Positions 1 through 64,000 of a DNA stretch of 64,000 nt are shown piece by piece; the stretch's first letter is position 1; each line of letters starts with the position of its first letter. This DNA is from an uncultured Gammaproteobacteria bacterium (GTDB taxonomy: Bacteria; Patescibacteriota; Microgenomatia; Daviesbacterales; UBA10151). The stretch lies in contig CAZDEH010000003.1 in NCBI GenBank assembly GCA_964504665.1, positions 1,140 through 65,139 on the forward strand, written 5' to 3'. Under the pieces are notes generated by a model. It saw nothing but the letters and a program-made list of their open reading frames with translations, ran no database searches and was not told the origin of the DNA. A program made the position numbers and the translations under genes.

Positions 1-1928
1 TTCTGGGGGCAAATATTTTATCGACCATATTTTCCATCGATACACATGTTTCCATTTGGGGATATTATTCCAGATCAAATGGGGGACTTGTATCAATTTT
101 CTCTTATACCTTACTTTATTTTGCTCTTGTGTCTAACATATCCCGTGAATATGCTATGAAATTCTTAAAATCGGCGGTAGCGGGAGGCACGGTAATCACT
201 CTTTATGCAATCCCAGAACATTTTGGCGTCTCTCCTTCCTGTATATTTTTAACAGGACAATTTAGTGCAAATTGTTGGGTGCAAGATGTCCAAACCAGGG
301 TATTTGCTACTCTTGGTCAGCCAAACTGGCTGGCAGCATACTTGGCGATGCTTATCTTCCCTGTTTTATATTTTGTTCTGACTACCAAAAACAAATTTTC
401 CACTATATTTTATGCTTTTACCTCTATACTTTTTTATCTCGCTTTTACCTTTACATATTCCAGAGGAGCAACTTTAGGACTTCTGGCAGGATTTGCAGTT
501 TTCCTGGGGGCATTTTTATGCGTCCACCTCGGAGGTGGAAAGCTAAATCTAAATAAATCCATACTAATAATTTTATCGGCGTTTATCCTTATTAATCTAT
601 TTTTTGGTTCTGCTCTTACCAGCTTTAAATTATTATCCAAATTTGCCCCTCCTCCCAGACCTGGGGTAATTACCAAAGTCCCACCTAACTCTGGTACCCA
701 ACTGGAAAACGGAGGCACAGAATCCGGGGCTATCAGATTAATTGTGTGGCGCGGGGAAATAGACATCTGGAGGCACTTTCCTGTCCTGGGTACCGGAGTA
801 GAAACGTTTGCTTTTTCCTACTACAGTTTTAGACCTCCGGAACACAACCTGGTTTCCGAGTGGGATTTTCTTTATAACAAAGCCCACAATGAGTTCTTAA
901 ATTATCTTGCTAATACTGGTTTAGTGGGATTTTTAAGCTATACGATACTGATATTAACCTTCATATTTTGGTCAATTAAAAAAATTATTTCTCCTAAAGC
1001 AGACAATCGTTTACTGCTTATCGCAATTTTAGCATCGCTTGTAAGTTATCACGTTCAAAATTTTTTTGGTTTTTCTGTAGTAATTATCGCTGTTTTTTTC
1101 TACCTATTCCCAGCCTTAGCATTTATTACCACAGATTCTCTAAGACCATTTAAAATTCCCTCCAGCTTCTATCTTCTATCTTCCGGCTTCCAGCTAATCT
1201 ACCGTCGTCCAATTTACACCAAACTGGCAAAGATAGCGGTTATCATCATTTCAACCTCAATCATCATCACTCTTACCAGACATTATTGGGCTGATACTTA
1301 TTTTGCCTCAGGTAATAGTGCCTCTGACGCGGGTAATTCTGGAAAAGCTTATAATAAATTTATCGAGGCAGTATCTCTGAGTCCAGGAGAACCATATTAT
1401 CGTTCAGAGTTAGCATATGCTGCAGCAGCGTCTGCTGTAGCCTTATCGGAAGAAGACGCCACAATTAGCGCCAGATTAAAAACTGAAGCAATAAAAGTAA
1501 CTGAACAGGTGTTGAAAGAAAGTCCTAAAAATGTATCTTTTTATAGAACAGCCATCAGAACTTATTACTATCTCTCAATTCTTGACAAGCAATTTACAGC
1601 AAAAACTTTACAAACTCTCAATCAAACCATTACTTTAGCTCCTACTGATGCAAAATTACTTTACAATAAGGCTGTAATTTTAGGACAGACAGGCAGAAAT
1701 CAGGAAGCTATTCAAGCACTTGAAAAAACTGTTATTTTAAAACCAAATTACCGGGATGCTTATTATACTTTAGGACTTTTCTATTTTGATAGCGCTAGCG
1801 ATCAAAAGAGCTCCGCTCATCTTGATGATAAGCAAAAAGATAAAGCTAGGGAGCAAATGAAAAAAGTACTTCAACTAATTCCGGGAGATTCAGAGGCTAC
1901 AGAAAAGTTAAAGGAATGGGGTCAGTGA
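1..1928 (+). CDS. O-antigen ligase-like (Wzy_C) polytopic membrane protein with C-terminal TPR repeats; 5' end probably beyond the window (frame is open from nt 3, and the GTG at 129 is only the first in-window start)
   Basis: Multi-TM N-terminal region; motif GTGVETFAFSYY...EWDFLYNKAHNEFLNYLANTGLVGF typical of the Wzy_C/O-antigen ligase family; C-terminal TPR-like repeats (YNKAVILGQTGRNQEAIQALEKTVILKPNYRDAYYTLGLFYF). No in-frame stop between nt 3 and 129. Confidence 0.6.
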   Translation, partial: LGANILSTIFSIDTHVSIWGYYSRSNGGLVSIFSYTLLYFALVSNISREYAMKFLKSAVAGGTVITLYAIPEHFGVSPSCIFLTGQFSANCWVQDVQTRVFATLGQPNWLAAYLAMLIFPVLYFVLTTKNKFSTIFYAFTSILFYLAFTFTYSRGATLGLLAGFAVFLGAFLCVHLGGGKLNLNKSILIILSAFILINLFFGSALTSFKLLSKFAPPPRPGVITKVPPNSGTQLENGGTESGAIRLIVWRGEIDIWRHFPVLGTGVETFAFSYYSFRPPEHNLVSEWDFLYNKAHNEFLNYLANTGLVGFLSYTILILTFIFWSIKKIISPKADNRLLLIAILASLVSYHVQNFFGFSVVIIAVFFYLFPALAFITTDSLRPFKIPSSFYLLSSGFQLIYRRPIYTKLAKIAVIIISTSIIITLTRHYWADTYFASGNSASDAGNSGKAYNKFIEAVSLSPGEPYYRSELAYAAAASAVALSEEDATISARLKTEAIKVTEQVLKESPKNVSFYRTAIRTYYYLSILDKQFTAKTLQTLNQTITLAPTDAKLLYNKAVILGQTGRNQEAIQALEKTVILKPNYRDAYYTLGLFYFDSASDQKSSAHLDDKQKDKAREQMKKVLQLIPGDSEATEKLKEWGQ

Positions 1929-6287: not shown

Positions 6288-7394
6288 TTATCGGAGACCT
6301 TCTAGTAACATAGAGTAGAACCTGAGATTGTGGATTGTAGCTAACCTAATAGATAAAACGTCCTGGATTTTAAATAAATGATGTAAATAGGCACGGGAAT
6401 ATTCCCTACAGGTTAAACAATCACAAAATTTACTGACTGGATCCATCGATTTTTCATATTTAGCGCTCCCAAAGTATAAGTTCGAGTAACAACTTCCTTC
6501 AATTAATCCTTGTTTAGTAGGAAGTTTGGTAAAAACGTATAACTTTTTATGGCGGGCTTCCCGGGTTGGGATCACGCAGTCAAAGATTCCATAACCCCAA
6601 CCAACACAGTCAACAATATTTTCCGGTCTACCCACCCCCAAAGCATATTTTGGTTTATTGTCTGGTAATAATGAGGCTGTATACTTTACAATTTCAGACA
6701 AAAATTTCCCATCAGCAACCGGAAAACCACCAAAACAATAACCATCAAAGCCAATTTTGATCAGCTCTTTAGCACAATATTTCCTTAAATTTTTATCATT
6801 TCCACCCTGAACAACTGCAAAAAGAAGAGGTTTAGCCTTGCAAGGATACACCTTGCGAAGCTGGGGCTGGCTAGTAGTTAATTTATTAAACTCATCTTTT
6901 GACCTTTTTGCCCACTTAATAGTCCTTTCTACTGAAATTTTTTGTTCATCAAATGAGCATTCCGGCTTAGTACAATCATCCAAAACTATAGCTATATCTG
7001 TACCCAACCGTAGTTGTAACTGAATTGATTTTTCAGGAGTCAGAACTATTTTTTGTGCTCCATTTGGCTTAAAAATAATTTCTTTATCCCTGATAACTCC
7101 AAATTGTGGATTATCATGGATCAAAGACATTACCTGGAAGCCCCCAGAATCGGTTATGATGGGTCTTGTCCACCTCATAAAGTAGTGAATACCGTCAAAA
7201 CTTTTAATTCTTTGGCTGAGTGCATCTGATAACAGATGATAGGTATTAATAACTAAACCCTCAACCTGAGCATTTTCTAAATCCGTGGCATCAACTCCCC
7301 TTACTACTCCCCTTGTTCCATCAGGGAAAAAGGTAGGCAGAGTTATTTGACCATGAAGAGTCTGTAAGTGACTTAAGCAACTGGATGAGAACAT
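6288..7394 (-). CDS. tgt: queuine tRNA-ribosyltransferase (tRNA-guanine transglycosylase)
   Basis: DSGGFQV, ALGVGRPE, FDCVIPTR and the zinc motif CDCLTCREYSRAYLHHL. Confidence 0.85.
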   Translation of the reverse strand: MFSSSCLSHLQTLHGQITLPTFFPDGTRGVVRGVDATDLENAQVEGLVINTYHLLSDALSQRIKSFDGIHYFMRWTRPIITDSGGFQVMSLIHDNPQFGVIRDKEIIFKPNGAQKIVLTPEKSIQLQLRLGTDIAIVLDDCTKPECSFDEQKISVERTIKWAKRSKDEFNKLTTSQPQLRKVYPCKAKPLLFAVVQGGNDKNLRKYCAKELIKIGFDGYCFGGFPVADGKFLSEIVKYTASLLPDNKPKYALGVGRPENIVDCVGWGYGIFDCVIPTREARHKKLYVFTKLPTKQGLIEGSCYSNLYFGSAKYEKSMDPVSKFCDCLTCREYSRAYLHHLFKIQDVLSIRLATIHNLRFYSMLLEGLR

Positions 7395-8690: not shown

Positions 8691-9848
8691 TTATCTTTCC
8701 TGATCTTCAATTATCCTTTCCAAATTAACTCTGGCAACACTAAATTTTCCCTCTCCGAAATGGTAAGAAAAGGTTGTAGCAGAATGCTCAATAATACCTT
8801 TTTCTCTTAAGTTTTCTATAAATGGAATTGTAGGTAGTTTGCCTCTTTGTTTTAAACTGAATTCTCTTACCAATAAATATTGTTCAACCAACTGTCCCTC
8901 TGATAATACTCTAGTATAAGGTGTAGGTAACTTGGCTTCTACTAAGGATAAATTTCTATAGTAATTAAGTTTTTCTTCTTTTTCAGGGCAAACAGAATGA
9001 ACATATTCGGCAAAAAATTTTAAATCACGGAGATTGAGAACACCTAATCCACTAATGCCTCCACTCTCCGTTTGCGACATAAGTAATCTCGGTCTTGCAA
9101 TATTAACTCTTTGGAAAAGTTCAGCCATAAAATTAATGTTGTTTGGATAGTTTGTTGAATAAACAAGTCCTTTTCCGTATTGTAAATACATACTAGTTTC
9201 AAAAACAGCTCGAATAAAACCCCAGATATACTCGGGATTAGACATAATCCAGGAATGTTTTATGGCAACTGTATCCGACCAATGATCCTTACGTAAATCT
9301 CCTAAAAATCGTGCAGATGGACGATCATAAAATCTGGCTAGCTCATATTGACGACCTTTTTTATCTGTTCTAATATCAATTCTTGCCATGTCACTCTGAA
9401 AGAGTTCTTCACCGACATTCTGAAATTGGGCAATCAGACGAGGATTAAACGTCGGTATTGAAATTGCTCCGCTTGATCGCTGTACTGTTCCCTCCTCCGA
9501 TAATAAACCTATCATCCAGGCTAAATTATAAGAAGGTGAGATCCTGGTACCAAACTCTACTCTAGCTAAACGTCTTTGTTCTACTAACCCTTCAGATCTC
9601 AATATATTGTAAACCGAGGCAAAACCGCGATAACTAAACAATAACCCCAATTCATCAGGAGTTGACAGGTGATTGATTTCTCCACTACGGAGTCTATTGA
9701 TTTCTTCTCTAGAAAAATCTAGTAATGCTTCTCTTCTAAATTTTCTCTCTGGGTTCATATTTTCAAATCTCCTGAGGTAAAAGGATGCGCCTGATATACT
9801 ATCGTCCAGTGCGGGCGTCTTTTTGTGCATCTTCAAGATCTCGGTCAA
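8691..9848 (-). CDS. double-motif LAGLIDADG-like protein (paralog 2)
   Basis: LAWMIGLLSEEGTV and IWGFIRAVFETSMYL; tandem paralog of 7650-8684. Confidence 0.5.
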   Translation of the reverse strand: MTEILKMHKKTPALDDSISGASFYLRRFENMNPERKFRREALLDFSREEINRLRSGEINHLSTPDELGLLFSYRGFASVYNILRSEGLVEQRRLARVEFGTRISPSYNLAWMIGLLSEEGTVQRSSGAISIPTFNPRLIAQFQNVGEELFQSDMARIDIRTDKKGRQYELARFYDRPSARFLGDLRKDHWSDTVAIKHSWIMSNPEYIWGFIRAVFETSMYLQYGKGLVYSTNYPNNINFMAELFQRVNIARPRLLMSQTESGGISGLGVLNLRDLKFFAEYVHSVCPEKEEKLNYYRNLSLVEAKLPTPYTRVLSEGQLVEQYLLVREFSLKQRGKLPTIPFIENLREKGIIEHSATTFSYHFGEGKFSVARVNLERIIEDQER

Positions 9849-12012
9849 TTCTAATCACTCTTAACAAACGATTTTGCTCTTCTAAAAATACTATACGTTC
9901 TTGTTTATCTTTAATTTGTGCAATAATATCAGGATAACCCCAACCAAATTTACCAATCACTTTCATTGCTTCACTGAGACTATTTAAATTAGTTGGTGAG
10001 ATACTACCATAATCCAGGTCGTAATTTTGAATAGCATCAACAAAAGGTCTTAAGTGAATACCAATTTCCCGCTGTAATCTTCGGTTAAGCTCGTCAAGCC
10101 GTCTTTTCTCATTCTCTCCCTCGCTAATAATTGGTTGTTCTATGATGTCTGGTCTTGTAGTGGGCAAAGGAGTTCGCATCTCAGGTGGTCTAACAGGAAC
10201 TTGCTGAGAAGGTGCTGAAGGAACAACTGCTACTATTGGTTTTTCCGGTACTGAAGCAATTGGTTTTGGTGGAATTGCAGCTTTTGCACTACGCTCATCT
10301 CTTTCTTTCTGTTTCGCTAATGCAAATTTTATCGTCATCAGACCACCTTCTTCAATAACCTCTGATTGCAAATCACGGTCAAGCTTCGTTAAATCTTGGA
10401 TTCTTTGTTGGATTTCTCTCACTTCTTGCTCATTTAATACCACGCCTCGATCCCTTATCGAAAAGTTTCTCATGATATACCGGTAAATCATTTGACCCAA
10501 TAAACTCCCTGTGCCTGCTCTAGTATCTGTAAAAGAGTGCTCTACTAAACGGTCCACAAGATAGCTATTTTGCTGTACATTAATACTCTTTCTTCTCTCC
10601 ATATAAACTACTTCTAATTGTTGTTTAGCAAAATTCAAATCACCTACAGTTATCGATGAGAAAACAGACCTTTGATTACTTTTTAACTTTCCGATTGCTT
10701 CATCGATCGTGACTGCATCAACACCCCGTTGAACTAATGCTCCGCGGTTTGCTACCAGATTTTCAATAAATTGACTCGTTTGCATAATCTGCTTATTGGC
10801 TTCGATTATATTACGGGCTATTGTTGCTGGTTGAACAGATTTAAAATCCATAACAAATCCCAGGCGTTCAAGTAAATTAACTTCAGTGGATGTTAAATTA
10901 TCAGCAGGTTTTTTTGAAACTTCCAAATATATTCTTCTTAACAACTTTCGGTTATAACCCTTTTTTACTTCACTATATTTTTGCACTGGCTGTTCTGCTG
11001 CAAATACCTCCGAAACTTGTGATAAATTTAGTCTTTGATCTTCCAGGATGGCTGGCACGTTATCAAACAGATTTTCTCTCTGCACAGAGTCAACCACTTT
11101 CCCCAGAGAGGTAAGGATAGTTCTGGCGAGCTCGTCTCTTACCCTTTCCCGACTAGTACCCTCGGGAACAGATGCTAATTTCTTCTCTATCTCTGGTGTG
11201 TGTAACATACCATATATATTGCGGATTGCAGCCTGTTCGCCACCGATCGCTGGTGAAAGTTTTGCTACTAATTCAAGTGCTGCTCTAGCCACGTTAAAGC
11301 TTCGCAAATTGGATAATTGGATAACTTCCGCCATTTCCAGAAAAGCTTGTATTATCCTCTGTTTTTGTTCTTGTGTTTCATTCACCAAAATAGTTTCTTT
11401 TTTCAGTTGAGTCTCAAGTATACTTGGAGCGAGTGAACTTTTGGTAGCCAGAAATCCAAGGGCGGCTGTGGCTGAATATTGAGCAGCAATCTCAGGTCCA
11501 ACCATATTATTCCAACCATTCATCAGGTGACCAGCAATTCTACCCGGAACTATTTCTTGATGCGCCCTGGTAGAGGGGATAACAGCGCGCAGATATTGCA
11601 GCCAAGTCAGAGCTTGTTGATCGTCGCACTGTTCGTCACGATGGACAACTGTTAAATCATGAAGGAAAGTTGCTGTCACATCTTTGACTTCAAAAACAAA
11701 GTCAGGTTTGGCCCGCTGAATAATTTCTGGATGATCAGCAGCAAATTTGGTACGGTTCAAACCGTCAAGTACGAAATAACGAGTGGTCTCTTTCCCATCT
11801 GGTAAAGGTGTTAATACCCTCACTACTTGAGGCTTATCCCAAGCCTCAATACTAAAATTATGTTCCAGACGGTTATAAATTTCTGGACTAATAATATTTG
11901 CAGCCGGATTTCCTCTAACTAATTCCAGAGGGTCAACGGCAAATATTCTTCCGTTCTCCGGATTTTGATATCCTTCTGTTTTATTTTCCTTACTAATATC
12001 TGGTGAAGCCAT
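9799..12012 (-). CDS. large protein with an N-terminal ParB/Srx-fold-like domain, a long helical/coiled-coil region and a Pro-rich C-terminal segment
   Basis: FAVDPLELVRGNPAAN...VVRVLTPLPDGKETTRYFVLDGLNRTKFAA parallels the ParB N-domain (I..I..NP...VVR....Y.VAGERRWRAA) with DGxxR in place of GERR. Probable start MASPD at 12012 (the GTG at 12030 is also possible). PPKPIASVPEKPIVAVVPSAPSQQVPVRPPE is low-complexity. Confidence 0.45.
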   Translation of the reverse strand: MASPDISKENKTEGYQNPENGRIFAVDPLELVRGNPAANIISPEIYNRLEHNFSIEAWDKPQVVRVLTPLPDGKETTRYFVLDGLNRTKFAADHPEIIQRAKPDFVFEVKDVTATFLHDLTVVHRDEQCDDQQALTWLQYLRAVIPSTRAHQEIVPGRIAGHLMNGWNNMVGPEIAAQYSATAALGFLATKSSLAPSILETQLKKETILVNETQEQKQRIIQAFLEMAEVIQLSNLRSFNVARAALELVAKLSPAIGGEQAAIRNIYGMLHTPEIEKKLASVPEGTSRERVRDELARTILTSLGKVVDSVQRENLFDNVPAILEDQRLNLSQVSEVFAAEQPVQKYSEVKKGYNRKLLRRIYLEVSKKPADNLTSTEVNLLERLGFVMDFKSVQPATIARNIIEANKQIMQTSQFIENLVANRGALVQRGVDAVTIDEAIGKLKSNQRSVFSSITVGDLNFAKQQLEVVYMERRKSINVQQNSYLVDRLVEHSFTDTRAGTGSLLGQMIYRYIMRNFSIRDRGVVLNEQEVREIQQRIQDLTKLDRDLQSEVIEEGGLMTIKFALAKQKERDERSAKAAIPPKPIASVPEKPIVAVVPSAPSQQVPVRPPEMRTPLPTTRPDIIEQPIISEGENEKRRLDELNRRLQREIGIHLRPFVDAIQNYDLDYGSISPTNLNSLSEAMKVIGKFGWGYPDIIAQIKDKQERIVFLEEQNRLLRVIRIDRDLEDAQKDARTGR

Positions 12013-12106
12013 TGGGGGGCATTTTAGCACTACATATAATATTTTTCAAGTACAACTACATCCTATCGCTATATACATCAAAATTGCTTTTAGGTAAAAT
12101 GATGGA

Positions 12107-12769
12107 ATGGATCCAACTATTTTTGCCGGAGCAATTGTTATTTTACTTTTTTCAGTTATAGTCCATGAAGTTATGCATGGTTTAGTGGCTTTAAAGTTTG
12201 GTGACAGGACAGCCCAAAATGCTGGCAGGTTAACTTTAAATCCACTCCCCCATATTGATCCTATAGGCACAATTCTGGTACCAACCATACTTATATTATC
12301 AGGATTATTACTTCCAGGTGGTAATAGTTTTATTATTGGGTGGGCCAAACCTGTACCAGTAAATCCGTTAAATTTCTCCAATTTCAGAACAGGCGAGTTG
12401 TTTGTATCTTTAGCAGGCGTCGGATCAAATTTTGCTTTAGCTATTTTTGCTGCTATAATTTATCATTTGTTTATCCTCTTGTTACCTCAAGCAATCCTTG
12501 AATTACTAAAATTTACCGTTACAATTAATCTACTTTTAGGTATATTTAATTTATTGCCTATTCCTCCTCTTGACGGGTCAAAAGTTCTCATGTCCAGATT
12601 ACCAACAACATTAGCTATCCAGTATCAAAGCATTGAAAGATATGGCATGTTTATATTGCTATTCCTTTGGTTTGTCCCAATTGGAGGAATACCAATCCTA
12701 AGTCTAATTATAGGTATTGCAGTTAGTACAATTAATTTAATCTTAAGAGTTCCTTTAAGGCTTTTTTGA
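12107..12769 (+). CDS. site-2 protease family (peptidase M50) zinc metalloprotease
   Basis: HEVMHG (HExxH) in TM1; polytopic; LDGS motif region. Confidence 0.75.
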   Translation: MDPTIFAGAIVILLFSVIVHEVMHGLVALKFGDRTAQNAGRLTLNPLPHIDPIGTILVPTILILSGLLLPGGNSFIIGWAKPVPVNPLNFSNFRTGELFVSLAGVGSNFALAIFAAIIYHLFILLLPQAILELLKFTVTINLLLGIFNLLPIPPLDGSKVLMSRLPTTLAIQYQSIERYGMFILLFLWFVPIGGIPILSLIIGIAVSTINLILRVPLRLF

Positions 12770-12778
12770 GACTAAACT

Positions 12779-13099
12779 TTAATTTTTTCTCAGTTCATGA
12801 GCAATAACTGGAATTTTTCCAATATCTTTCAACTTTTTCTCATGCTCAAAAACAGTTTCATCTACATGTTCAGCAAACTCTAGAATAGTATCAGCTTTTT
12901 CATTTAATTCTTTAAATTTATCACCAAATTTTCTTTCAATTCTTTTAATATCATCTTTGACTTCTTGCATATCTTCTTTAATACCGCCAACATCCTTTTT
13001 AATCCCTTGAACATCAACTTTTACTTCTTGAATATCATCTTTAGAAGCCACAGCTTCTATTAGCCTTGTTACTAATTTAGTAATATCTTTATCATTCAT
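12779..13099 (-). CDS. small coiled-coil protein
   Basis: Heptad-like repeats VKVDVQGIKKDVGGIKEDMQEVKDDIKRIE. Confidence 0.4.
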   Translation of the reverse strand: MNDKDITKLVTRLIEAVASKDDIQEVKVDVQGIKKDVGGIKEDMQEVKDDIKRIERKFGDKFKELNEKADTILEFAEHVDETVFEHEKKLKDIGKIPVIAHELRKN

Positions 13100-13251
13100 A
13101 AATACATTTTAGTTTTAACTTTCCAAGAACACAATCTAGTACTAATAGATCAAATTACTTCAATTATTAATAACTACTTGAATAGCCCTTTATGAAGCCT
13201 TAAACATAAGTCTAAATCATAAATTTAGGCACGATTTTGAGCATTTTTAAC

Positions 13252-13280
13252 TTGACAAGAAACTTAATAATTGTTAGTAT
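13252..13280 (+). promoter_or_regulatory. sigma70-like promoter TTGACA-17-TAGTAT
   Basis: -35 at 13252-13257, -10 at 13275-13280, 17-nt spacer. Confidence 0.5.
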
Positions 13281-13286
13281 TAAGAT

Positions 13287-13540
13287 GTCCGAAAGGACAA
13301 GTAGATGGTCCGCCTTAGGCGAGACTCCCTACGAGGTACGTTAAAAGTTTGAGGATTACATTTTTCCTCCATCGTTAATAAACTTTGGAGATCCGGAGTG
13401 TCCCGGCGTAAAGTCGGACCAGGATTTCCACCTGAAAGTATTAGGGGAAAAAACCTCAAGCCACGGCTGAGTAGGGTGGAATTATTTTTTTTATTTTGAA
13501 TTCTGCCCAGTCCCTCGAAACTTCGAGGGGCTGGTTTTTG
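13287..13540 (+). ncRNA. unidentified structured ncRNA candidate (~255 nt) between a promoter and an intrinsic terminator
   Basis: Several GNRA-type hairpins (GUCCGAAAGGAC; CGCCUUAGGCG; CCGGCGUAAAGUCGG), GC content well above the flanks, bounded by a promoter and a terminator. No match to RNase P, tmRNA or SRP conserved motifs could be made by eye. Confidence 0.4.
13506..13539 (+). terminator. Rho-independent terminator (cccagtccctcgaaacttcgaggggctgg + TTTTT)
   Basis: 11-bp stem with a G-U pair, a GAAA-containing loop, then a T-run. Confidence 0.6.
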
Positions 13541-13594
13541 TATTATCAGCTTCCAGTTCCCAATCAACCAACTTTTTGTTAAAATATACACTGT

Positions 13595-13666
13595 GCCGAT
13601 GTAGCTCAGAAGTAGAGCAGACGCTTTGTAAGCGTAAGGTCGAGATTGCGATATTCTCCATCGGCT
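13595..13666 (+). tRNA. tRNA-like gene, anticodon UGU (Thr), atypical
   Basis: Perfect 7-bp acceptor stem (GCCGATG/CATCGGC) and D-arm TAGCTCAG..GAGC; anticodon loop TTTGTAA. The D-loop lacks GG and the T-loop reads TGCGATA rather than TTCRANY, so this may be a pseudo-tRNA or unusual tRNA. Confidence 0.5.
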
Positions 13667-13725
13667 CAGACTTATGGTTATTTTAGTATCTTGATATTTG
13701 TGTTTTATTTGGGTAACATATAATT

Positions 13726-14361
13726 ATGCGTCCTGCCTTTTATGATGATCTTCAATATAAACAAAAACAATCAGAGATTATCCATAAATATTGGCAAAAT
13801 GGAATATATAACAAGTTAGTAAAACCCTTAGAAATCAGATACTGTAAAAACATTAGCTGCAATTCTCCTTTTAAAATTAAGCCTTATGGAAAGAAAATAT
13901 ATTGTAGTTCTAGGTGCGCTGCCATTATCAATAACATAAATAGATTTCGAAAAATTGTTTTTTGTAGAACATGTAATAAACAATTAAATCGATCTAATCG
14001 GGTTTACTGTTCTGTAAAGTGCCAGATGATATATCAACATAAAATCCTAATAGAAGATTGGCAGAAAAAATCAATTGATGGAAATCCAATTTTAAATACT
14101 AAAAATATATCAAGACATCTTAAGCGCTTTTTACTAGAAAAATACGGAGAAAAGTGCTTAGCTTGCGGATGGGATAATATTAATCCCCTAACTAATAAAG
14201 TTCCTTTGGAAATAGACCATATAGACGGAAATTCTAGTAATAATAAGGAAGGAAATTTGAGATTACTTTGTCCTAATTGCCATTCATTAACTCCTCATTT
14301 TAGAAACCTAAACAAAGGTAACGGAAGAGCCTGGAGACAAAAACAATCCAAAATAATATAA
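13726..14361 (+). CDS. HNH endonuclease with N-terminal Cys-rich zinc-ribbon region
   Basis: LEIDHIDGNSSNNKEGNLRLLCPNCHSLT (HNH motif); multiple CxxC pairs N-terminally; sits between two tRNA genes. Confidence 0.75.
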   Translation: MRPAFYDDLQYKQKQSEIIHKYWQNGIYNKLVKPLEIRYCKNISCNSPFKIKPYGKKIYCSSRCAAIINNINRFRKIVFCRTCNKQLNRSNRVYCSVKCQMIYQHKILIEDWQKKSIDGNPILNTKNISRHLKRFLLEKYGEKCLACGWDNINPLTNKVPLEIDHIDGNSSNNKEGNLRLLCPNCHSLTPHFRNLNKGNGRAWRQKQSKII

Positions 14362-14471
14362 TTTTGTGGCAAGCTGGCATAACTAAGTGATAAGAACAGC
14401 AGTTTGTAACAGTCCGATCCCGACATCAACAGGGACAGGATCTCTGAGCGGAGCGAAAGGTTCTTATTCTG

Positions 14472-14699
14472 TTAGGAGACTCCTATATTACACCCTAAAA
14501 CTTCTGACAGAATCTTAAAACAATCAGCCCTTAATTGTCTTACGTATCCTTGACGGATCATATAAATTAATACTTCTGAAAGACCCTGATTACTTAATCG
14601 TTCATCAATAACTTGAGCATCCCCTCTAACCCAAGCATCTTTGATGACCTGATGGGATATTGGTAAATAAGACCATTCTGTGCTTATTTCTTTTTTCAT
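14472..14699 (-). CDS. hypothetical small protein
   Basis: ORF only. Confidence 0.3.
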   Translation of the reverse strand: MKKEISTEWSYLPISHQVIKDAWVRGDAQVIDERLSNQGLSEVLIYMIRQGYVRQLRADCFKILSEVLGCNIGVS

Positions 14700-14749
14700 A
14701 AAATATGTTTCTGGTTAATTTTATCAGAATTTGATAAAATTTTCCCACT

Positions 14750-14824
14750 GCCGACGTAGCTTAGTGGTAAAGCACTTCATTGGTAATGAAGAGACCATGG
14801 GTTCGATCCCCATCGTCGGCTCCA
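14750..14824 (+). tRNA. tRNA-Thr (anticodon GGU), CCA encoded
   Basis: Canonical cloverleaf: acceptor GCCGACG/CGTCGGC, D GCTT/AAGC, anticodon stem CTTCA/TGAAG with loop TTGGTAA, T-arm ATGGG-TTCGATC-CCCAT, then 3' TCCA. Confidence 0.85.
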
Positions 14825-14873
14825 ACCTTAAAACTTATTGAATTTCTATCATTTATATGTATATGATTAACTT

Positions 14874-15449
14874 ATGCATGGTTTTACTGCCTTACCTTTA
14901 GTTATTATTTTAGTCATTGCTGGTGTTGTGGGTGTTGGTTGGTACACATTCTCAGCTAACCAACAAGCTAAAGTTACAGTTTCTCCCAGCATTAAGCCTA
15001 CTGTTCTATCAACACCCAGTCCAACATTAACTCCTACATTTACTCCCAAACCCACTTTAAAACCTACTATCAAATTAAGTCCTACGCCTTCCCCGAGTCC
15101 CTCTCCTACACCAACTCCTACACCTACCCCAACTAGCAGTTCACAATCATCGGGTTGTAATACAAGTACTGATTTAGGAAATTTAACAGTTAATATTCAA
15201 CCAAACTCAGGTGAGTCATTAGTTGGAGATGCCTCAGTAAATATGAGCAACGGTAGCGGTGACTGTGCCGGAAATGATTCCAGACTGCCTTACACACAGA
15301 TTATCCGTCAAGGATCAACCTCAATTACATTCCCCAGTTTTAGACCAGGGAAATTCCATATCCAGGTTGGCTATCATGGGAATAATTATGACAATGATGT
15401 AAATATAAACCCAGGGGATAATTCAATAACTGTGACGGTAAATAATTAG
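14874..15449 (+). CDS. secreted/anchored protein with a Pro-Thr-Ser-rich linker
   Basis: N-terminal TM/signal; [40 protein letters not shown]. Confidence 0.5.
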
Positions 15450-38100: not shown

Positions 38101-39066
38101 ATGCCAGGCTTAACAAAAACTCAGATCATTGGTTTGATCGGTTTCTTATTAATATTAATCAGCATCCCAATTTCCTTCTCTTTAGCCAAGAGATCCCAAA
38201 TTTTCCGCTCCCGGGCATCTGAATTAAAAACTACTGCTACAACCACCGGAACAGTTTCCGGAACAGTGACAAAATCCCGCGAAGTTCCTGCTTCTTCCCC
38301 CCTGACTGATTTACAAAAATTACTACAGGGAGAATCCCCAACCCCAGACAGTACTACAAACCCAAGTATTTCCCCTACTCCCACATCTGAAGTTAGCCTG
38401 GCTTTCGGGCCAACTTTAAATCTTAAGGTTTCTATCGAAGGTAGGCCTGAAGCTAAACAATCAGATAGAATATTTATCGGTATTGCTTCAAACAGTACTG
38501 CTCCCCCAACATACATTTTGACTTTCACTATCGATATGCCTGATTCAGGAATATTTAAAGGTATCTCCCTGGCAGGTCTAAATCCGGGTTCTCAGTATAC
38601 AGCTTTTATCAAAGGAACATCACAAATTGACGTTTCCTCAACTTTTACCATGGATCCAACAGAAAGCAATCTTAATAATGATCAACCAATAACCTTAATT
38701 TCCGGTGACTTAAATGAGGATAATACTATCAATACTACAGATTATTCTCTTGCCCAAAACCTATATGGCACTACATCATCTTCCAGTAATTGGAATGCCC
38801 GAGCTGATTTTAACAAGGATAATATAATTAATAACTATGACCTGGCTATTATTTCTAAAAATATAGGCAAAGCAGGAGCATCTGGATCCTGGATTTCTTC
38901 CCCAAGGCCATCTACCCAATCAGCCTCATTAACTACTAAACCAGGTGTGGGTGGTCCACCTACAAATTTTGGTGATCTACTTTTATCATCCAGCCCCTCT
39001 GCCTCACCTACAGAACCATCTAATAATACTTCTAATTCTTCTAGTTATTGGCTACGGGTTCCATAA
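38101..39066 (+). CDS. membrane-anchored secreted protein with dockerin-like Ca-binding repeats
   Basis: GDLNEDNTINTTDYSL ... ADFNKDNIINNYDLAII (dockerin type I-like pair); Ser/Thr/Pro-rich. Confidence 0.45.
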   Translation: MPGLTKTQIIGLIGFLLILISIPISFSLAKRSQIFRSRASELKTTATTTGTVSGTVTKSREVPASSPLTDLQKLLQGESPTPDSTTNPSISPTPTSEVSLAFGPTLNLKVSIEGRPEAKQSDRIFIGIASNSTAPPTYILTFTIDMPDSGIFKGISLAGLNPGSQYTAFIKGTSQIDVSSTFTMDPTESNLNNDQPITLISGDLNEDNTINTTDYSLAQNLYGTTSSSSNWNARADFNKDNIINNYDLAIISKNIGKAGASGSWISSPRPSTQSASLTTKPGVGGPPTNFGDLLLSSSPSASPTEPSNNTSNSSSYWLRVP

Positions 39067-41440: not shown

Positions 41441-41971
41441 ATGAAGACAAGAGCACAAAAAGAAGAATCTGTAAAAAATCTGACTGAAAAGTTCAGGTCT
41501 GCTAAATCTGTAGTTTTTACAGATTATCGTGGGATGACTATGAGTCAACTGTCAAACCTTCGCAATAAACTTACTGAGGCTGATGCACAATTTATTATTA
41601 CTAAAAATACTCTGGTAGATATTTCTTTAAAAGCAGCAGGACTCTTTGGTAAGTCTAATAATATTGCCAAAGGACCTACTGCTACTTTATTTAGTTTTAA
41701 TGATGAAATTTTACCTATCAAAACACTGGCAAAAGCACTACAAGACAACCAAGTAGGTAAATTTAAGGGTGGATTTTTAAACGGAGAATTTATGGAGGCT
41801 CTATCTATTACTAGACTAGCTGAACTGCCAAGTAAACTAGAATTACAAGCCAAAATTGTTGGTTCACTCTCTTCTCCACTTTATGGAATGGTGAATGTCC
41901 TTCAAGGTAACCTAAGAAATTTAGTATATGCACTCGATCAAATTAGAATCTCGAAAGGTGGTGAACTTTAG
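41441..41971 (+). CDS. rplJ: ribosomal protein L10
   Basis: [41 protein letters not shown]; ends with TAG. Confidence 0.85.
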
Positions 41972-45987: not shown

Positions 45988-46701
45988 CTATTTAGTCAAG
46001 ACTAACCATAAAAATTTTATCAAAACAGATTGTCTTTTAACTCTCCACGGTTGAAGTATTAGTCTAAATAACCACTCCAAACCTAATACCCTCATCCCCC
46101 ATGGGGCTCTTAATACTTTTCCTGATAGATAATCAAAAGCGCCTCCTATCCCTATTGCCACTTTAACAGGCAATTTATCCAGGTTGTTAACGATCCACTT
46201 TTCCTGCTTAATATGACCAAAACCTACAAATAAAATATCTACACGTAATTTCCTGTGTTTATCACTGGAAAACAAGGCAGTCTCCTTACCATTCTTATCA
46301 ACCATAGGACCATCTTCTGCATATAATATCTTCAGTTTTTGATATTTTTTCCGTAAGCGCTCAGCAGCCTTCTTTGCTACTCCCTTTTTACCACCTAAAA
46401 AGCCTACACTAAAGCCCTTATCGGCTAAAACAAGACAAAGTTTTTCCATCAAATCAATACCAGTAGTGGTGTGTTTAATACTTCTTGATAACTTTAAACC
46501 TACCCCATCAGGAATAGCTAAATCAGCTCTGTTTAGAATCTCTTTAAATTCGGAATCTGTTTGGGCAGCCATAATAAATTCAGGATTTGGAGTAACTACA
46601 TATCTTTTTTTATCTGACTTCAACCAGTTTATCACTATATCAACGGCTTCCTTCAAAGAAACGTCGTCAATGTTTACTCCCAGAATATTTACTTTTTCCA
46701 T
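45988..46701 (-). CDS. WecB/TagA/CpsF-family (GT26) glycosyltransferase
   Basis: ILGVNIDDVSLKEAVDIV...YVVTPNPEFIMAAQTD...AIPDGVGL family signature. Confidence 0.7.
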   Translation of the reverse strand: MEKVNILGVNIDDVSLKEAVDIVINWLKSDKKRYVVTPNPEFIMAAQTDSEFKEILNRADLAIPDGVGLKLSRSIKHTTTGIDLMEKLCLVLADKGFSVGFLGGKKGVAKKAAERLRKKYQKLKILYAEDGPMVDKNGKETALFSSDKHRKLRVDILFVGFGHIKQEKWIVNNLDKLPVKVAIGIGGAFDYLSGKVLRAPWGMRVLGLEWLFRLILQPWRVKRQSVLIKFLWLVLTK

Positions 46702-61609: not shown

Positions 61610-64000
61610 TTAGATAACAATGTTAAATATTTTACCCGGAACGTAAATTATTTTTTTGATAGAGTTTTCTCTAATATATTTGTCAATTTTTGGTAATTTT
61701 AAGACCATTTCTTCAATGATTTTTTTATTATTTACTATATCTTTTTGTATCAAAATGTTTTCCCGTAGTTTACCGTTTATCTGTATAACCAAAATGGTCT
61801 GTTCATCTTCCAGGTATTTTTTATCAAATTCAGGCCAGGGTTGGTTATGGATAGAATACTTATTCCCCATTATCTCCCACAGTTCTTCAGTAATAAACGG
61901 CGCTATTGGAGATAACATAATCAGCAGCTTTTGAATGGTATCTTTGGAGGCTGTTTTTTGTCTGGATAGAAAGTTTAATAGCTCCATTAGACTTGCCACA
62001 ACAGTATTGTATCGCAGGTTTTCAAAATCATTATCAGTTTTTTCGATAGTTTTGTTCAAAATTCTCTTTTCTTCTTCTGTCGCCTCAATATCTTTATAAT
62101 TTTGTACTAAACCCCACACCCTGTTAAGAAAACGATAGGTTCCATTTAAACCGTCATCCCGGAAATCACCCCCACCAGTAAATGGTCCCATAAACATTAG
62201 ATAGGCTCTGAATACATCGGCTCCCCAATCTTTAATGTATTTATCAGGCACAACTACATTACCTTTAGATTTACTCATTTTAGCTCCGTCTTTAATAATT
62301 AAACCGTGAGCCCTAAATTTTGTGAATGGTTCTTCGAAATCAATAAATCCCAGATCCTTAAAAGCCATGGTGATAAACCGCGAGTAAAGCAAGTGAAGAA
62401 CTGAGTGCTCTGCCCCACCAATATACATATCTACAGGCAGCCATTTCTTAGTTCTACTGTCATCAAAAAATTTGTCATCTAAATCCGTGGTTAAATATCT
62501 AAAAAAATATAAAGCTGAGTCAAAAAAATTATCCGATACATCAGTCTCACGCCTGGCTTTTCCCCCACACTTAGGGCAAGTAGTATTAACAAAATCTGGA
62601 TCTGAAGCTAAAGGCCCTAAACCTGTACCCGTAGGCTTAAAATCTTTAACATAAGGCAACTCTACTGGCAAATCTTTTTCCGGCACGGGCTGGGTTCCAC
62701 ACTTATCGCAGTAAATTATTGGAATTGGTGGACCCCAATACCTTTGCCTGGAAATTAACCAATCACGCAGATGATATTGAATTTTAATTGAGCCCAGATG
62801 ATGCTCTACGAGATAGTTTGTTATCTTCTCTCTCGCTTCCGGGGAATTCATACCATTATACTCTCCGCTATTAACAAGTACTCCTTCACCCTCATAAGCT
62901 TCTTCTGATATCTCAGCTTCACAAGGTGTATCCTTGCGAAGCTGAATAACAGTTTGGATGGGTAAATTATATTTCTTAGCAAACTCAAAATCCCTTTGAT
63001 CGTGTGCCGGAACAGCCATAATTGCGCCTGTTCCATAACCCATCAACACATAATCAGCCACCCACACAGGAATGTCTTTCCCAGTGAGAGGATTTTTAAC
63101 AAATGTACCTGTAAAAATACCTGTTTTTTCCTTATCTCCTTGGCGTTCAATATCAGATTTTTCCTTGGCTGCTTGAACATAATCTGAAACTTTGCCTTTC
63201 TGCTCTTTAGTAACTAGTTGATCTATTTTTGGGTATTCCGGACTAATAACCAAGAAAGTTGCTCCAAAAACAGTATCCGGCCTGGTAGTAAACACTTCTA
63301 ATTCGCCGAATTTTATTAAGGCTCCCTCTGATTTTCCTATCCAATTGCGCTGAGCTGTTTTGACTAATTCCGTCCAGTCTAAGGAATCTATATTTAAAAG
63401 CAGTTTTTCTGCATAATCTGTGATCTTTAGAAACCATTGGTCCACTTCTTTTTGAACCATTGTTCAAGTTCTTTTTTCGTCACCCGAGAAGAACATCTCT
63501 CACACTCTCCGGAAATAACCTGCTCATCAGCGAGTACTGTCAGACATGATGGACACCAATTTACCTCTGCTCTTTTCCGGTAAGCCAATCCCTTTTTATA
63601 TAGCTGAAGAAAAGCCCACTCCGTCCATTTGTAATAGTTTGATTTATATGTATCGACTGTTTTCTGCCAATCAAAAGCATTCCCAATTAATAAAAACTGC
63701 TCATAAAAATGCTTTTCTGTTCTTTTACTCACCTCCATTGGATGCTCATTTATTTTCATTGCATAATTTTCGCCATGAATTCCAAAACCATCCAGGCCAA
63801 TAGGTTCAAATACATCATACCCTTGTAGCCTTTTAAACCTGGAGTAAACATCTGATCCTGTAAAAGCATACATATTACCTACATGCATACCCTCAGCTGA
63901 AGGATAAGGAAACATCATCAGAGAATAATATGGTTTTTTTGATTCATCTAAATCAGGGCTAAATAGACCATCTTCTTTCCACTTTTTTGCCCATTTAGGT
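61610..64000 (-). CDS. leuS: leucyl-tRNA synthetase, split by a frameshift near 63430-63475; N-terminus extends beyond the window
   Basis: FPYPSAEGMHVGN (HIGH), CERCSSRV, then WFLKITDYAEKLL in the second ORF; KMSKS at MSKSKGN; upstream frame remains open to nt 64000. Confidence 0.8.

Follow-up and report, generated by a model that had tools for sequence, protein, structure and literature searches.

A probable 6S RNA, missed by default Rfam annotation, in a Daviesbacteria-like Patescibacteria bacterium from groundwater

Most bacteria have a 6S RNA, which regulates transcription globally. Its defining architecture consists of a closing arm, a central bubble, and an apical arm (PMC8876501). In Escherichia coli, a 9-bp hairpin forms in 6S RNA when the synthesis of a short product RNA (pRNA) unwinds the downstream helix, and this hairpin promotes release (PMC8876501). 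The 6S-1 RNA (BsrA) of Bacillus subtilis relies on a 'central bubble collapse helix' and not on an extended 3′ hairpin. Its precursor has an 11-nt 5′ leader, which is removed by RNase J1 (PMC10578484). Ms1, identified in Actinobacteria, is structurally related to 6S RNA and replaces it in some lineages (PMC9130861). In the open-access full-text literature searched, no paper linking 6S RNA to CPR/Patescibacteria was found, and the sole co-mention of '6S RNA' and 'Patescibacteria' concerns the mitochondrial SRP.

Here I describe a locus in a 64,000-nucleotide stretch of DNA (hereafter the window, meaning the whole stretch analysed) which very probably encodes the 6S RNA (SsrS homolog) of a groundwater bacterium, a Daviesbacteria-like member of the CPR/Patescibacteria. 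Like E. coli 6S RNA, the RNA is predicted to form a rod of closing arm, central bubble, and apical arm, with a GU.CG/CGGC element in its closing arm and a 3′ bubble strand that opens with CACCU, and both RNAs have their own sigma-70 promoter and a precursor with a 5′ leader. In contrast to the 183-nt E. coli RNA, the core is about 150-165 nt in length, its P4 helix is A/U-rich, and its neighbours are an M50 peptidase gene and tRNA-Thr instead of zapA and the 5-formyltetrahydrofolate cyclo-ligase gene. Compared with the consensus of the Rfam 6S/SsrS model RF00013, some 29 nt are missing from the apical arm (6 versus 35 inserted positions), the '-35-like' region of E. coli 6S RNA has no verified counterpart in the window RNA, and most members of the present group are too diverged for the Rfam gathering score. 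B. subtilis 6S-1 RNA shares a low-GC host with the window RNA. Ms1 also forms a 6S-like rod, has a proposed RNA polymerase-binding role, and occurs in a lineage where standard searches miss canonical 6S RNA, but it binds the core polymerase, is about 300 nt long, is not a pRNA template, and has no sequence or Rfam relation to the window RNA.

Transcription unit and genomic neighbourhood

The following features delimit the locus.

12107-12769: M50 peptidase gene (Pfam PF02163)
13252-13280, + strand: sigma-70-type promoter (-35 TTGACA at 13252-13257, 17-nt spacer, -10 TAGTAT at 13275-13280, TG at 13272-13273)
13507-13539, + strand: intrinsic terminator (12-bp stem at 13507-13534 with 8 G-C pairs, GAAA-type 4-nt loop, then U5, TTTTT)
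13595-13666, + strand: tRNA-Thr(UGU)-like gene (Rfam 51.9 bits; missed by ARAGORN)

An earlier note, made from the sequence alone, had proposed that a GC-enriched segment between this promoter and a strong terminator is a structured non-coding RNA lying just before a tRNA-like gene. All of these elements were recovered, and the promoter turned out to be TG-extended. It agrees with the consensus at 10 of 12 positions and is the joint best among the 15 promoter-like sites found by a consensus scan of 12000-15000; with 12.3 sites expected, a single site alone is not above chance. The comparison with homologs is more telling. Forty-five full-length copies, comprising 37 distinct sequences, were collected from Daviesbacteria-like MAGs and groundwater metagenomes; one of them (L090) is identical to the window RNA. 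TTGAC[AT]-N16-18-TAnnnT lies at the equivalent place in 35 of the 37 distinct homologs, and one of the exceptions is cut by the contig end. The predicted transcription start is at about 13286-13288, at the foot of a 5′ hairpin.

The terminator stem (13507-13534) is the sole terminator-like site in the 3 kb scanned, with a fold energy of -22.6 kcal/mol, and the predicted primary transcript is about 253 nt long (approximately 13287-13539). The GC content is 0.44 in 13300-13499 versus 0.27 in the flanks. The 255-nt transcript has a minimum free energy (MFE) of -95.8 kcal/mol (z = -4.75), and none of 200 shuffled sequences folded as well. In the nhmmer comparison, the RNA is an island of conservation amid otherwise unalignable intergenic DNA. 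These observations support the reading of the locus as a structured, non-coding RNA that is transcribed on its own between a promoter and a terminator. Of three hairpins that the earlier note described as closed by GNRA loops, all exist on the + strand (13287-13298, 13311-13321, and 13404-13418), but only the first has such a loop (GAAA), the other two being closed by a UUA triloop and by GUAAA (5 nt), respectively.

The minus strand opposite the RNA carries a 103-aa ORF (13280-13591), and the earlier note was right to regard it as spurious. Apart from the existence of the ORF itself, the observations speak against a protein-coding gene: the ORF has no Pfam match, its frame is broken in the homologs (the longest stop-free stretch has a median of 46 aa out of about 95 possible in the 37 homologs), the substitutions are compensatory in the RNA helices, and public gene callers call nothing there. 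The coding reading therefore has practically no weight, and the ORF was rejected as a gene.

A comparable terminator was found in only 8 of the 37 homologs by a crude scan. The RNA family as a whole does not conserve the strong terminator seen in the window, and in many relatives the 3′ end may be produced by processing, possibly from read-through toward the downstream tRNA. Could the RNA, then, be the cis-acting leader or a spacer in a tRNA operon, made in one transcript with the tRNA-Thr gene and later removed by processing? The scarcity of terminators would suit this idea, as would the tRNA genes found 3′ of the RNA in nearly all loci. However, in the window the RNA is divided from the tRNA by the strong terminator and by a separate TG-extended promoter (13557-13585), the homologs have similar -10 elements upstream of their tRNAs, and one would not expect a spacer to form a 165-nt rod with 6S homology and 30 covarying pairs. 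I consider a tRNA spacer very improbable and treat the locus as a gene of its own.

The order of M50 peptidase gene, RNA, and tRNA genes is conserved among the homologous loci. The nearest relatives of the M50 peptidase are from Candidatus Daviesbacteria and unnamed Patescibacteria MAGs (55-67% identity), and the exact peptidase gene sequence is found on groundwater metagenome contigs. An nhmmer search with the RNA region detected homologs 3′ of the peptidase gene in six loci, directly after the gene in five of them and past an intervening stretch in L005. A seventh peptidase-linked homolog, L002, was spotted by reading the intergenic DNA.

Several further observations concern the neighbours. 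A 106-aa coiled-coil-like ORF (12779-13099, minus strand), with no Pfam family above the cut-off, lies between the peptidase gene and the RNA and is also present in L123-L126; since the RNA directly follows the peptidase gene in L001 and L007-L010, the ORF looks like a lineage-specific insertion. Further upstream, a 743-aa ORF (9799-12030, minus strand) has a proline-rich stretch near its C-terminal third and no Pfam match at E ≤ 0.01. The T-arm of the tRNA-Thr(UGU)-like gene is degenerate, with non-canonical pairs (GAGAU-UGCGAUA-UUCUC). In several of the loci whose downstream flank was read, the 6S-like RNA is followed by a tRNA that has the same anticodon loop, and in most loci tRNA genes come after it. 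Between the tRNA-Thr(UGU) gene and a tRNA-Thr(GGU) gene (14750-14824) there is an HNH endonuclease-like ORF (13726-14361, + strand; Pfam HNH, 21.8 bits, at the cut-off), which may be a mobile or homing element inside the tRNA cluster. Upstream of the RNA in L002 (about 6835-6890), L005, L098, L100, L101, L110, and L112, an inverted repeat, TTGTCAAG-N10-12-CTTGACAA, takes in the promoter -35 element as one of its arms and comes after ACATACACAT-like repeats. The inverted repeat likely represents back-to-back divergent sigma-70 promoters; an operator would be the alternative.

Family assignment and rod structure

An Rfam scan of the whole window at the gathering threshold reported five tRNAs only and nothing in the RNA region. 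An E-value-mode scan of 13150-13700 (551 nt) aligned 13323-13481 to the full 6S/SsrS model RF00013 (positions 1-187) with 33.8 bits and an E-value of 3.3e-5. The gathering score of RF00013, 46.4 bits, is thus missed by the window RNA, although this score is an operational criterion and not a biological one. The alignment places the closing arm, the downstream helix (UUUUUCCUCC/GGGGAAAAAA), the two bubble strands, and a shortened apical arm. The consensus blocks are in register, namely GU.CG/CGGC in the closing arm and CCACCUG / CCCACCU at the junction of the apical arm and the 3′ bubble. RF00013 also matched the RNA in nine further loci, each time over model positions 1-187 and coinciding with the match of a covariance model described below (R1).

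L087 (identical to L085): 50.1 bits, above the gathering score of 46.4; E 2.5e-9 in the local scan
L121: 42.2 bits
L118: 41.2 bits
L098: 38.5 bits
L097 and L102: 36.1 bits
L110: 33.5 bits
L082: 33.3 bits
L111: 32.7 bits

L087, which is recognised as 6S RNA above the gathering score, is a full-length homolog of the window RNA (R1 87.6 bits). In the Rfam scans of the window and the homologous loci, RF00013 was the only non-tRNA family matching the RNA; the sole other family listed at the homologous loci, Plastid-ycf2, overlaps tRNA genes and not the RNA. ARAGORN found neither a tmRNA nor a tRNA over the region.

The model R1 was built from six sequences and a hand-specified structure. It matches the window at 13322-13487 with 139.7 bits and recovers L002 and L005, both of which are outside the model, at 56-59 bits. 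It found no homolog in 70 other M50-peptidase loci from other phyla and other CPR groups, so the synteny with the peptidase gene does not extend beyond the Daviesbacteria-like clade. A pattern derived from the final ~57 nt of the RNA (CCACCT..CGRC..AGTAGG....WATTAT) selected 41 loci in a metagenome scan, of which 38 were matched by R1 across all 168 positions (56-147 bits). As the pattern is confined to these ~57 nt, the recovery of the conserved 5′ two-thirds did not depend on it. All homologs found belong to one lineage, the Daviesbacteria-like one. A second match of R1 in the window (41669-41766, + strand; 13.7 bits, E 0.84) is not significant. A 1136-nt metagenome contig, L105, carries the 6S-like RNA twice in inverted orientation (1-82, + strand, and 928-1090, minus strand), one copy being cut by the contig end; this is probably an assembly artefact and possibly a real inverted duplication.

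The structure assigned to the window RNA is as follows.

13323-13481, + strand: 6S RNA core (from the RF00013 alignment, R1, and covariation), with the rod at 13327-13476
13327-13332 with 13471-13476, + strand: helix P1
13335-13341 with 13463-13468, + strand: helix P2
13347-13354 with 13454-13461, + strand: helix P3
13361-13370 with 13444-13453, + strand: helix P4 (downstream helix)
13371-13386 (5′ side, 16 nt) and 13430-13443 (3′ side, 14 nt), + strand: central bubble
13387-13429, + strand: apical arm (single stem-loop)
13480-13499, + strand: conserved 3′ tail, in which a U-rich run comes after AAUUAU (among the homologs, A[A/U]UUAU hardly varies)

The core is 150 nt from P1 to P1, 159-165 nt with the conserved AAUUAU, and about 199 nt with the leader, compared with a 6S range of about 160-200 nt. 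With the first 8 sequences alone, MAFFT and RNAalifold had misaligned P3 and P4 and yielded a partial structure, which was superseded by the hand-specified structure and R1. In the model-fitted alignment, 86.5% of the cells are paired versus 44-55% in slid controls, and double-sided changes occur in 30 of 47 pairs, with covarying pairs at 8 of 8 positions in P3 and 5 of 9 in P4. Because model fitting biases such pairing counts, the 37 sequences were re-aligned with MAFFT without fitting. RNAalifold on the unfitted alignment of the 37 sequences arrived de novo at the same three parts (closing arm, central bubble, and apical stem); 96.5% of the cells are paired versus 45-62% in the slid controls, with double changes in 10 pairs and 63 cells, and 0 of 500 shuffles were as high. 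Thus, covariation among the sequences supports a 6S-type rod whose closing arm (P1-P4) is interrupted, whose central bubble is large, and whose apical arm is short.

The earlier note had considered the family unknown and the RNA possibly novel, and had suggested an Infernal/Rfam scan and a covariation analysis with homologous loci. The scan returned nothing beyond tRNAs by default and the whole RF00013 model in a sensitive mode, and the covariation analysis confirmed the 6S architecture with both fitted and unfitted alignments. In substance, the matches to a known family (33.8 bits for the window, 50.1 bits for L087) overturn the idea of an unknown family. The earlier note was correct in excluding RNase P, tmRNA, and SRP RNA; 6S RNA had not been considered there.

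A reciprocal search with R1 against E. coli ssrS with the filters off gave no match (best 5.3 bits, off-target); R1 is too narrow for a reciprocal test. What connects the RNA with the characterised 6S RNAs is therefore the broad Rfam model together with the shared architecture. Could the RNA belong to a new family of structured regulatory or housekeeping RNAs that resembles 6S RNA in having a long interrupted hairpin with an internal loop but does not bind RNA polymerase? The sub-gathering score of the window, the failure of R1 to find ssrS, the short apical arm, and an invariant leader motif without 6S precedent would fit such a family. On the other hand, ten loci align end to end with RF00013, one of them above the gathering score, the landmarks CCCACCU and GU.CG/CGGC are in register, no other Rfam family matches, and a candidate release hairpin has the position and topology seen in E. 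coli. A new family is quite improbable, because the RF00013 matches, the landmarks, and the bistable hairpin would all need to be coincidence. Most likely, the RNA is a diverged 6S RNA that default Rfam annotation misses; its recognition closes a gap in annotation and adds no new kind of RNA.

Release hairpin and the proposed 6S cycle

A candidate counterpart of the E. coli release hairpin lies on the 3′ side of the central bubble.

13431-13445, + strand: 3′-central-bubble hairpin CCUGA-AAGUA-UUAGG, present in the MFE and centroid folds

The hairpin shares G13444-G13445 with the 3′ strand of P4, so that the hairpin and the top of P4 are mutually exclusive. The 3′ side of the bubble starts with an invariant CCCACCU in the family and with UCCACCU in the window, and the part that begins with CCU can form pairs with the P4 3′ strand. 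In the majority clade, the hairpin is CCUCAG-AUUU-CUGAGG. Family-wide, 84.2% of its cells are paired versus 40-55% in slid controls, with 14 double-change cells; the compensatory variants include CCUCAA/UUGAGG, CCUUAGG/CCUGAGG, and CCUUAGC/GCUGAGG. In E. coli ssrS, an equivalent hairpin arrangement, CACCUUGAACC-AAG-GGUUCAAGG, begins at the same CACCU motif. In both RNAs, the hairpin joins the 3′ bubble to the P4 3′ strand from the same CCU (PMC8876501), although it has 5-7 bp here versus 9 bp in E. coli.

Thermodynamic folds of the free RNA contain P4 (at least 6 bp) in 34 of the 37 homologs and the release hairpin (at least 4 bp) in 17 of the 37. A short 3′-bubble hairpin in the free RNA is also a property of B. 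subtilis 6S-1 RNA (PMC8876501). When the 5′ strand of P4 and 8 nt of the 5′ bubble were blocked, as a pRNA would do, the release hairpin appeared in 31 of the 37. In these folding models, the structural capacity for pRNA-induced refolding is present, and I infer the release event itself. The hairpin at 13431-13445 is the candidate pRNA-triggered release hairpin.

By analogy with the characterised 6S RNAs, from which holoenzyme binding and templating are taken, an E. coli-type 6S cycle may be proposed. The rod would mimic an open promoter and occupy the active-site cleft of the RNA polymerase holoenzyme carrying the housekeeping sigma factor, and this sequestration of the holoenzyme would lower transcription under nutrient scarcity. 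During outgrowth, the polymerase would use the 5′ bubble strand as a template for a pRNA and continue into P4. The synthesis of the pRNA would unzip P4 and free its 3′ strand (GGGG/UGAGG), which could then pair with the CCU... start of the 3′ bubble, and the resulting hairpin would help to eject the RNA.

This cycle bears on whether the RNA might be of the Ms1 type, that is, a 6S-like RNA which binds the core RNA polymerase instead of the holoenzyme and is not used as a template. The replacement of 6S RNA by the structurally related Ms1 in some lineages gives this idea some ground, as does the ~253-nt primary transcript, which exceeds typical 6S RNAs. However, the Rfam matches are to 6S RNA only, and the bistable P4/release hairpin makes sense only for a templating 6S RNA. 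Moreover, PMC9130861 places Ms1 in Actinobacteria, and neither taxon nor size fits. The chance that this is an Ms1-type RNA seems very slim, and the templating 6S RNA remains the preferred reading.

The conserved 5′ leader

The leader upstream of the core has three parts in the window.

13286-13299, + strand: leader hairpin H1, U-GUCC-GAAA-GGAC-A (MFE fold), at or within 1-2 nt of the predicted 5′ end
13300-13308, + strand: invariant leader motif AGUAGAUGG, which resembles the P1 3′ strand
13307-13326, + strand: leader hairpin H2, GGUC-CGCC-UUA-GGCG-A-GACU (MFE fold)

H1 is probably a 5′-terminal stabilising hairpin. Every homolog has a hairpin at this position, and within the clade of the window the stems are unrelated in sequence (e.g. 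GUAC/GUAC and UCACAAUUA/UAAUUGUGA). The position of H2 is variable, with 0-3 extra hairpins among the homologs. GUAGA[U/C]G, usually AGUAGAUGGCC, is found in 34 of the 37 distinct homologs, 14-79 nt upstream of the model-matched start of the core, and GUAGAUGG is invariant in the conserved 5′ leader, being present in 34 of the 37 sequences. In the fetched DNA, the motif GUAGAUGGCC occurs once per locus and only in the leader, apart from one apparent chance match. GUAGAUGG was also considered as a general processing signal, which is unsupported, as it occurs once per locus and in this leader only. In the window, AGTAGATGGYC has 5 matches including the exact copy of the leader, versus 1.4 expected (1 of 100 shuffles reached 5). 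The one-mismatch copies are located at 38906-38916 (minus strand), 46308-46318 (minus strand), 62177-62187 (+ strand), and 63966-63976 (minus strand) and are probably due to chance.

In the majority clade, the motif forms the apex and the 3′ strand of one long 5′-terminal hairpin, UCCUAAAGGACAUUU-AGU-AGAUGGCCUAAAGGA. This hairpin is paired in 90.6% of the cells versus 32-62% in slid controls, with only 2 double-change cells; it is too conserved to covary. In the clade of the window, the motif lies between two separate hairpins (13286-13299 and 13307-13326). The resemblance of the motif to the 3′ strand of P1 (AGUAG-GG...) has a possible structural consequence: AGUAG pairs with CUACU of the P1 5′ strand in 8 of 34 folds of nascent transcripts but in none of the 34 full-length folds, in which the true P1 is preferred in 34 of 34.

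The leader is the most distinctive trait of the RNA. I know of no comparable conserved, structured 6S leader, and none was met in the literature searched. The E. coli RNA differs in lacking a conserved structured leader with GUAGAUGG, and the leader here, at 40-100 nt, structured and conserved in sequence, differs from the 11-nt leader of B. subtilis 6S-1 RNA. I infer that the 5′ leader (the terminal hairpin, AGUAGAUGG, and the second hairpin), the 3′ tail, and the terminator are probably precursor or stabilising parts. It is a more daring idea, and an unlikely one, that the 5′ module, i.e. the terminal hairpin together with the invariant AGUAGAUGG(CC) copying the P1 3′ strand, is a functional, lineage-specific addition to 6S RNA and not a disposable leader. 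In that case, the module could, as a placeholder or switch, keep the P1 5′ strand (CUACU) paired until transcription has produced the 3′ strand; alternatively, it could be a maturation checkpoint or a protein-binding handle. If so, the RNA would be a structural variant of 6S RNA specific to Daviesbacteria-like CPR bacteria. Either way, the conserved motif poses a small question on the maturation or folding of 6S RNA.

The gene and most of its relatives are overlooked by standard Rfam annotation. The 6S assignment removes a false ORF, and the alignment of 37 sequences, together with its structure, could be the starting point of a model for 6S RNA annotation across Microgenomates. The presence of a 6S RNA in a Daviesbacteria-like genome suggests that these very small, genome-reduced, probably symbiotic bacteria keep a polymerase-sequestering switch for starvation and outgrowth.
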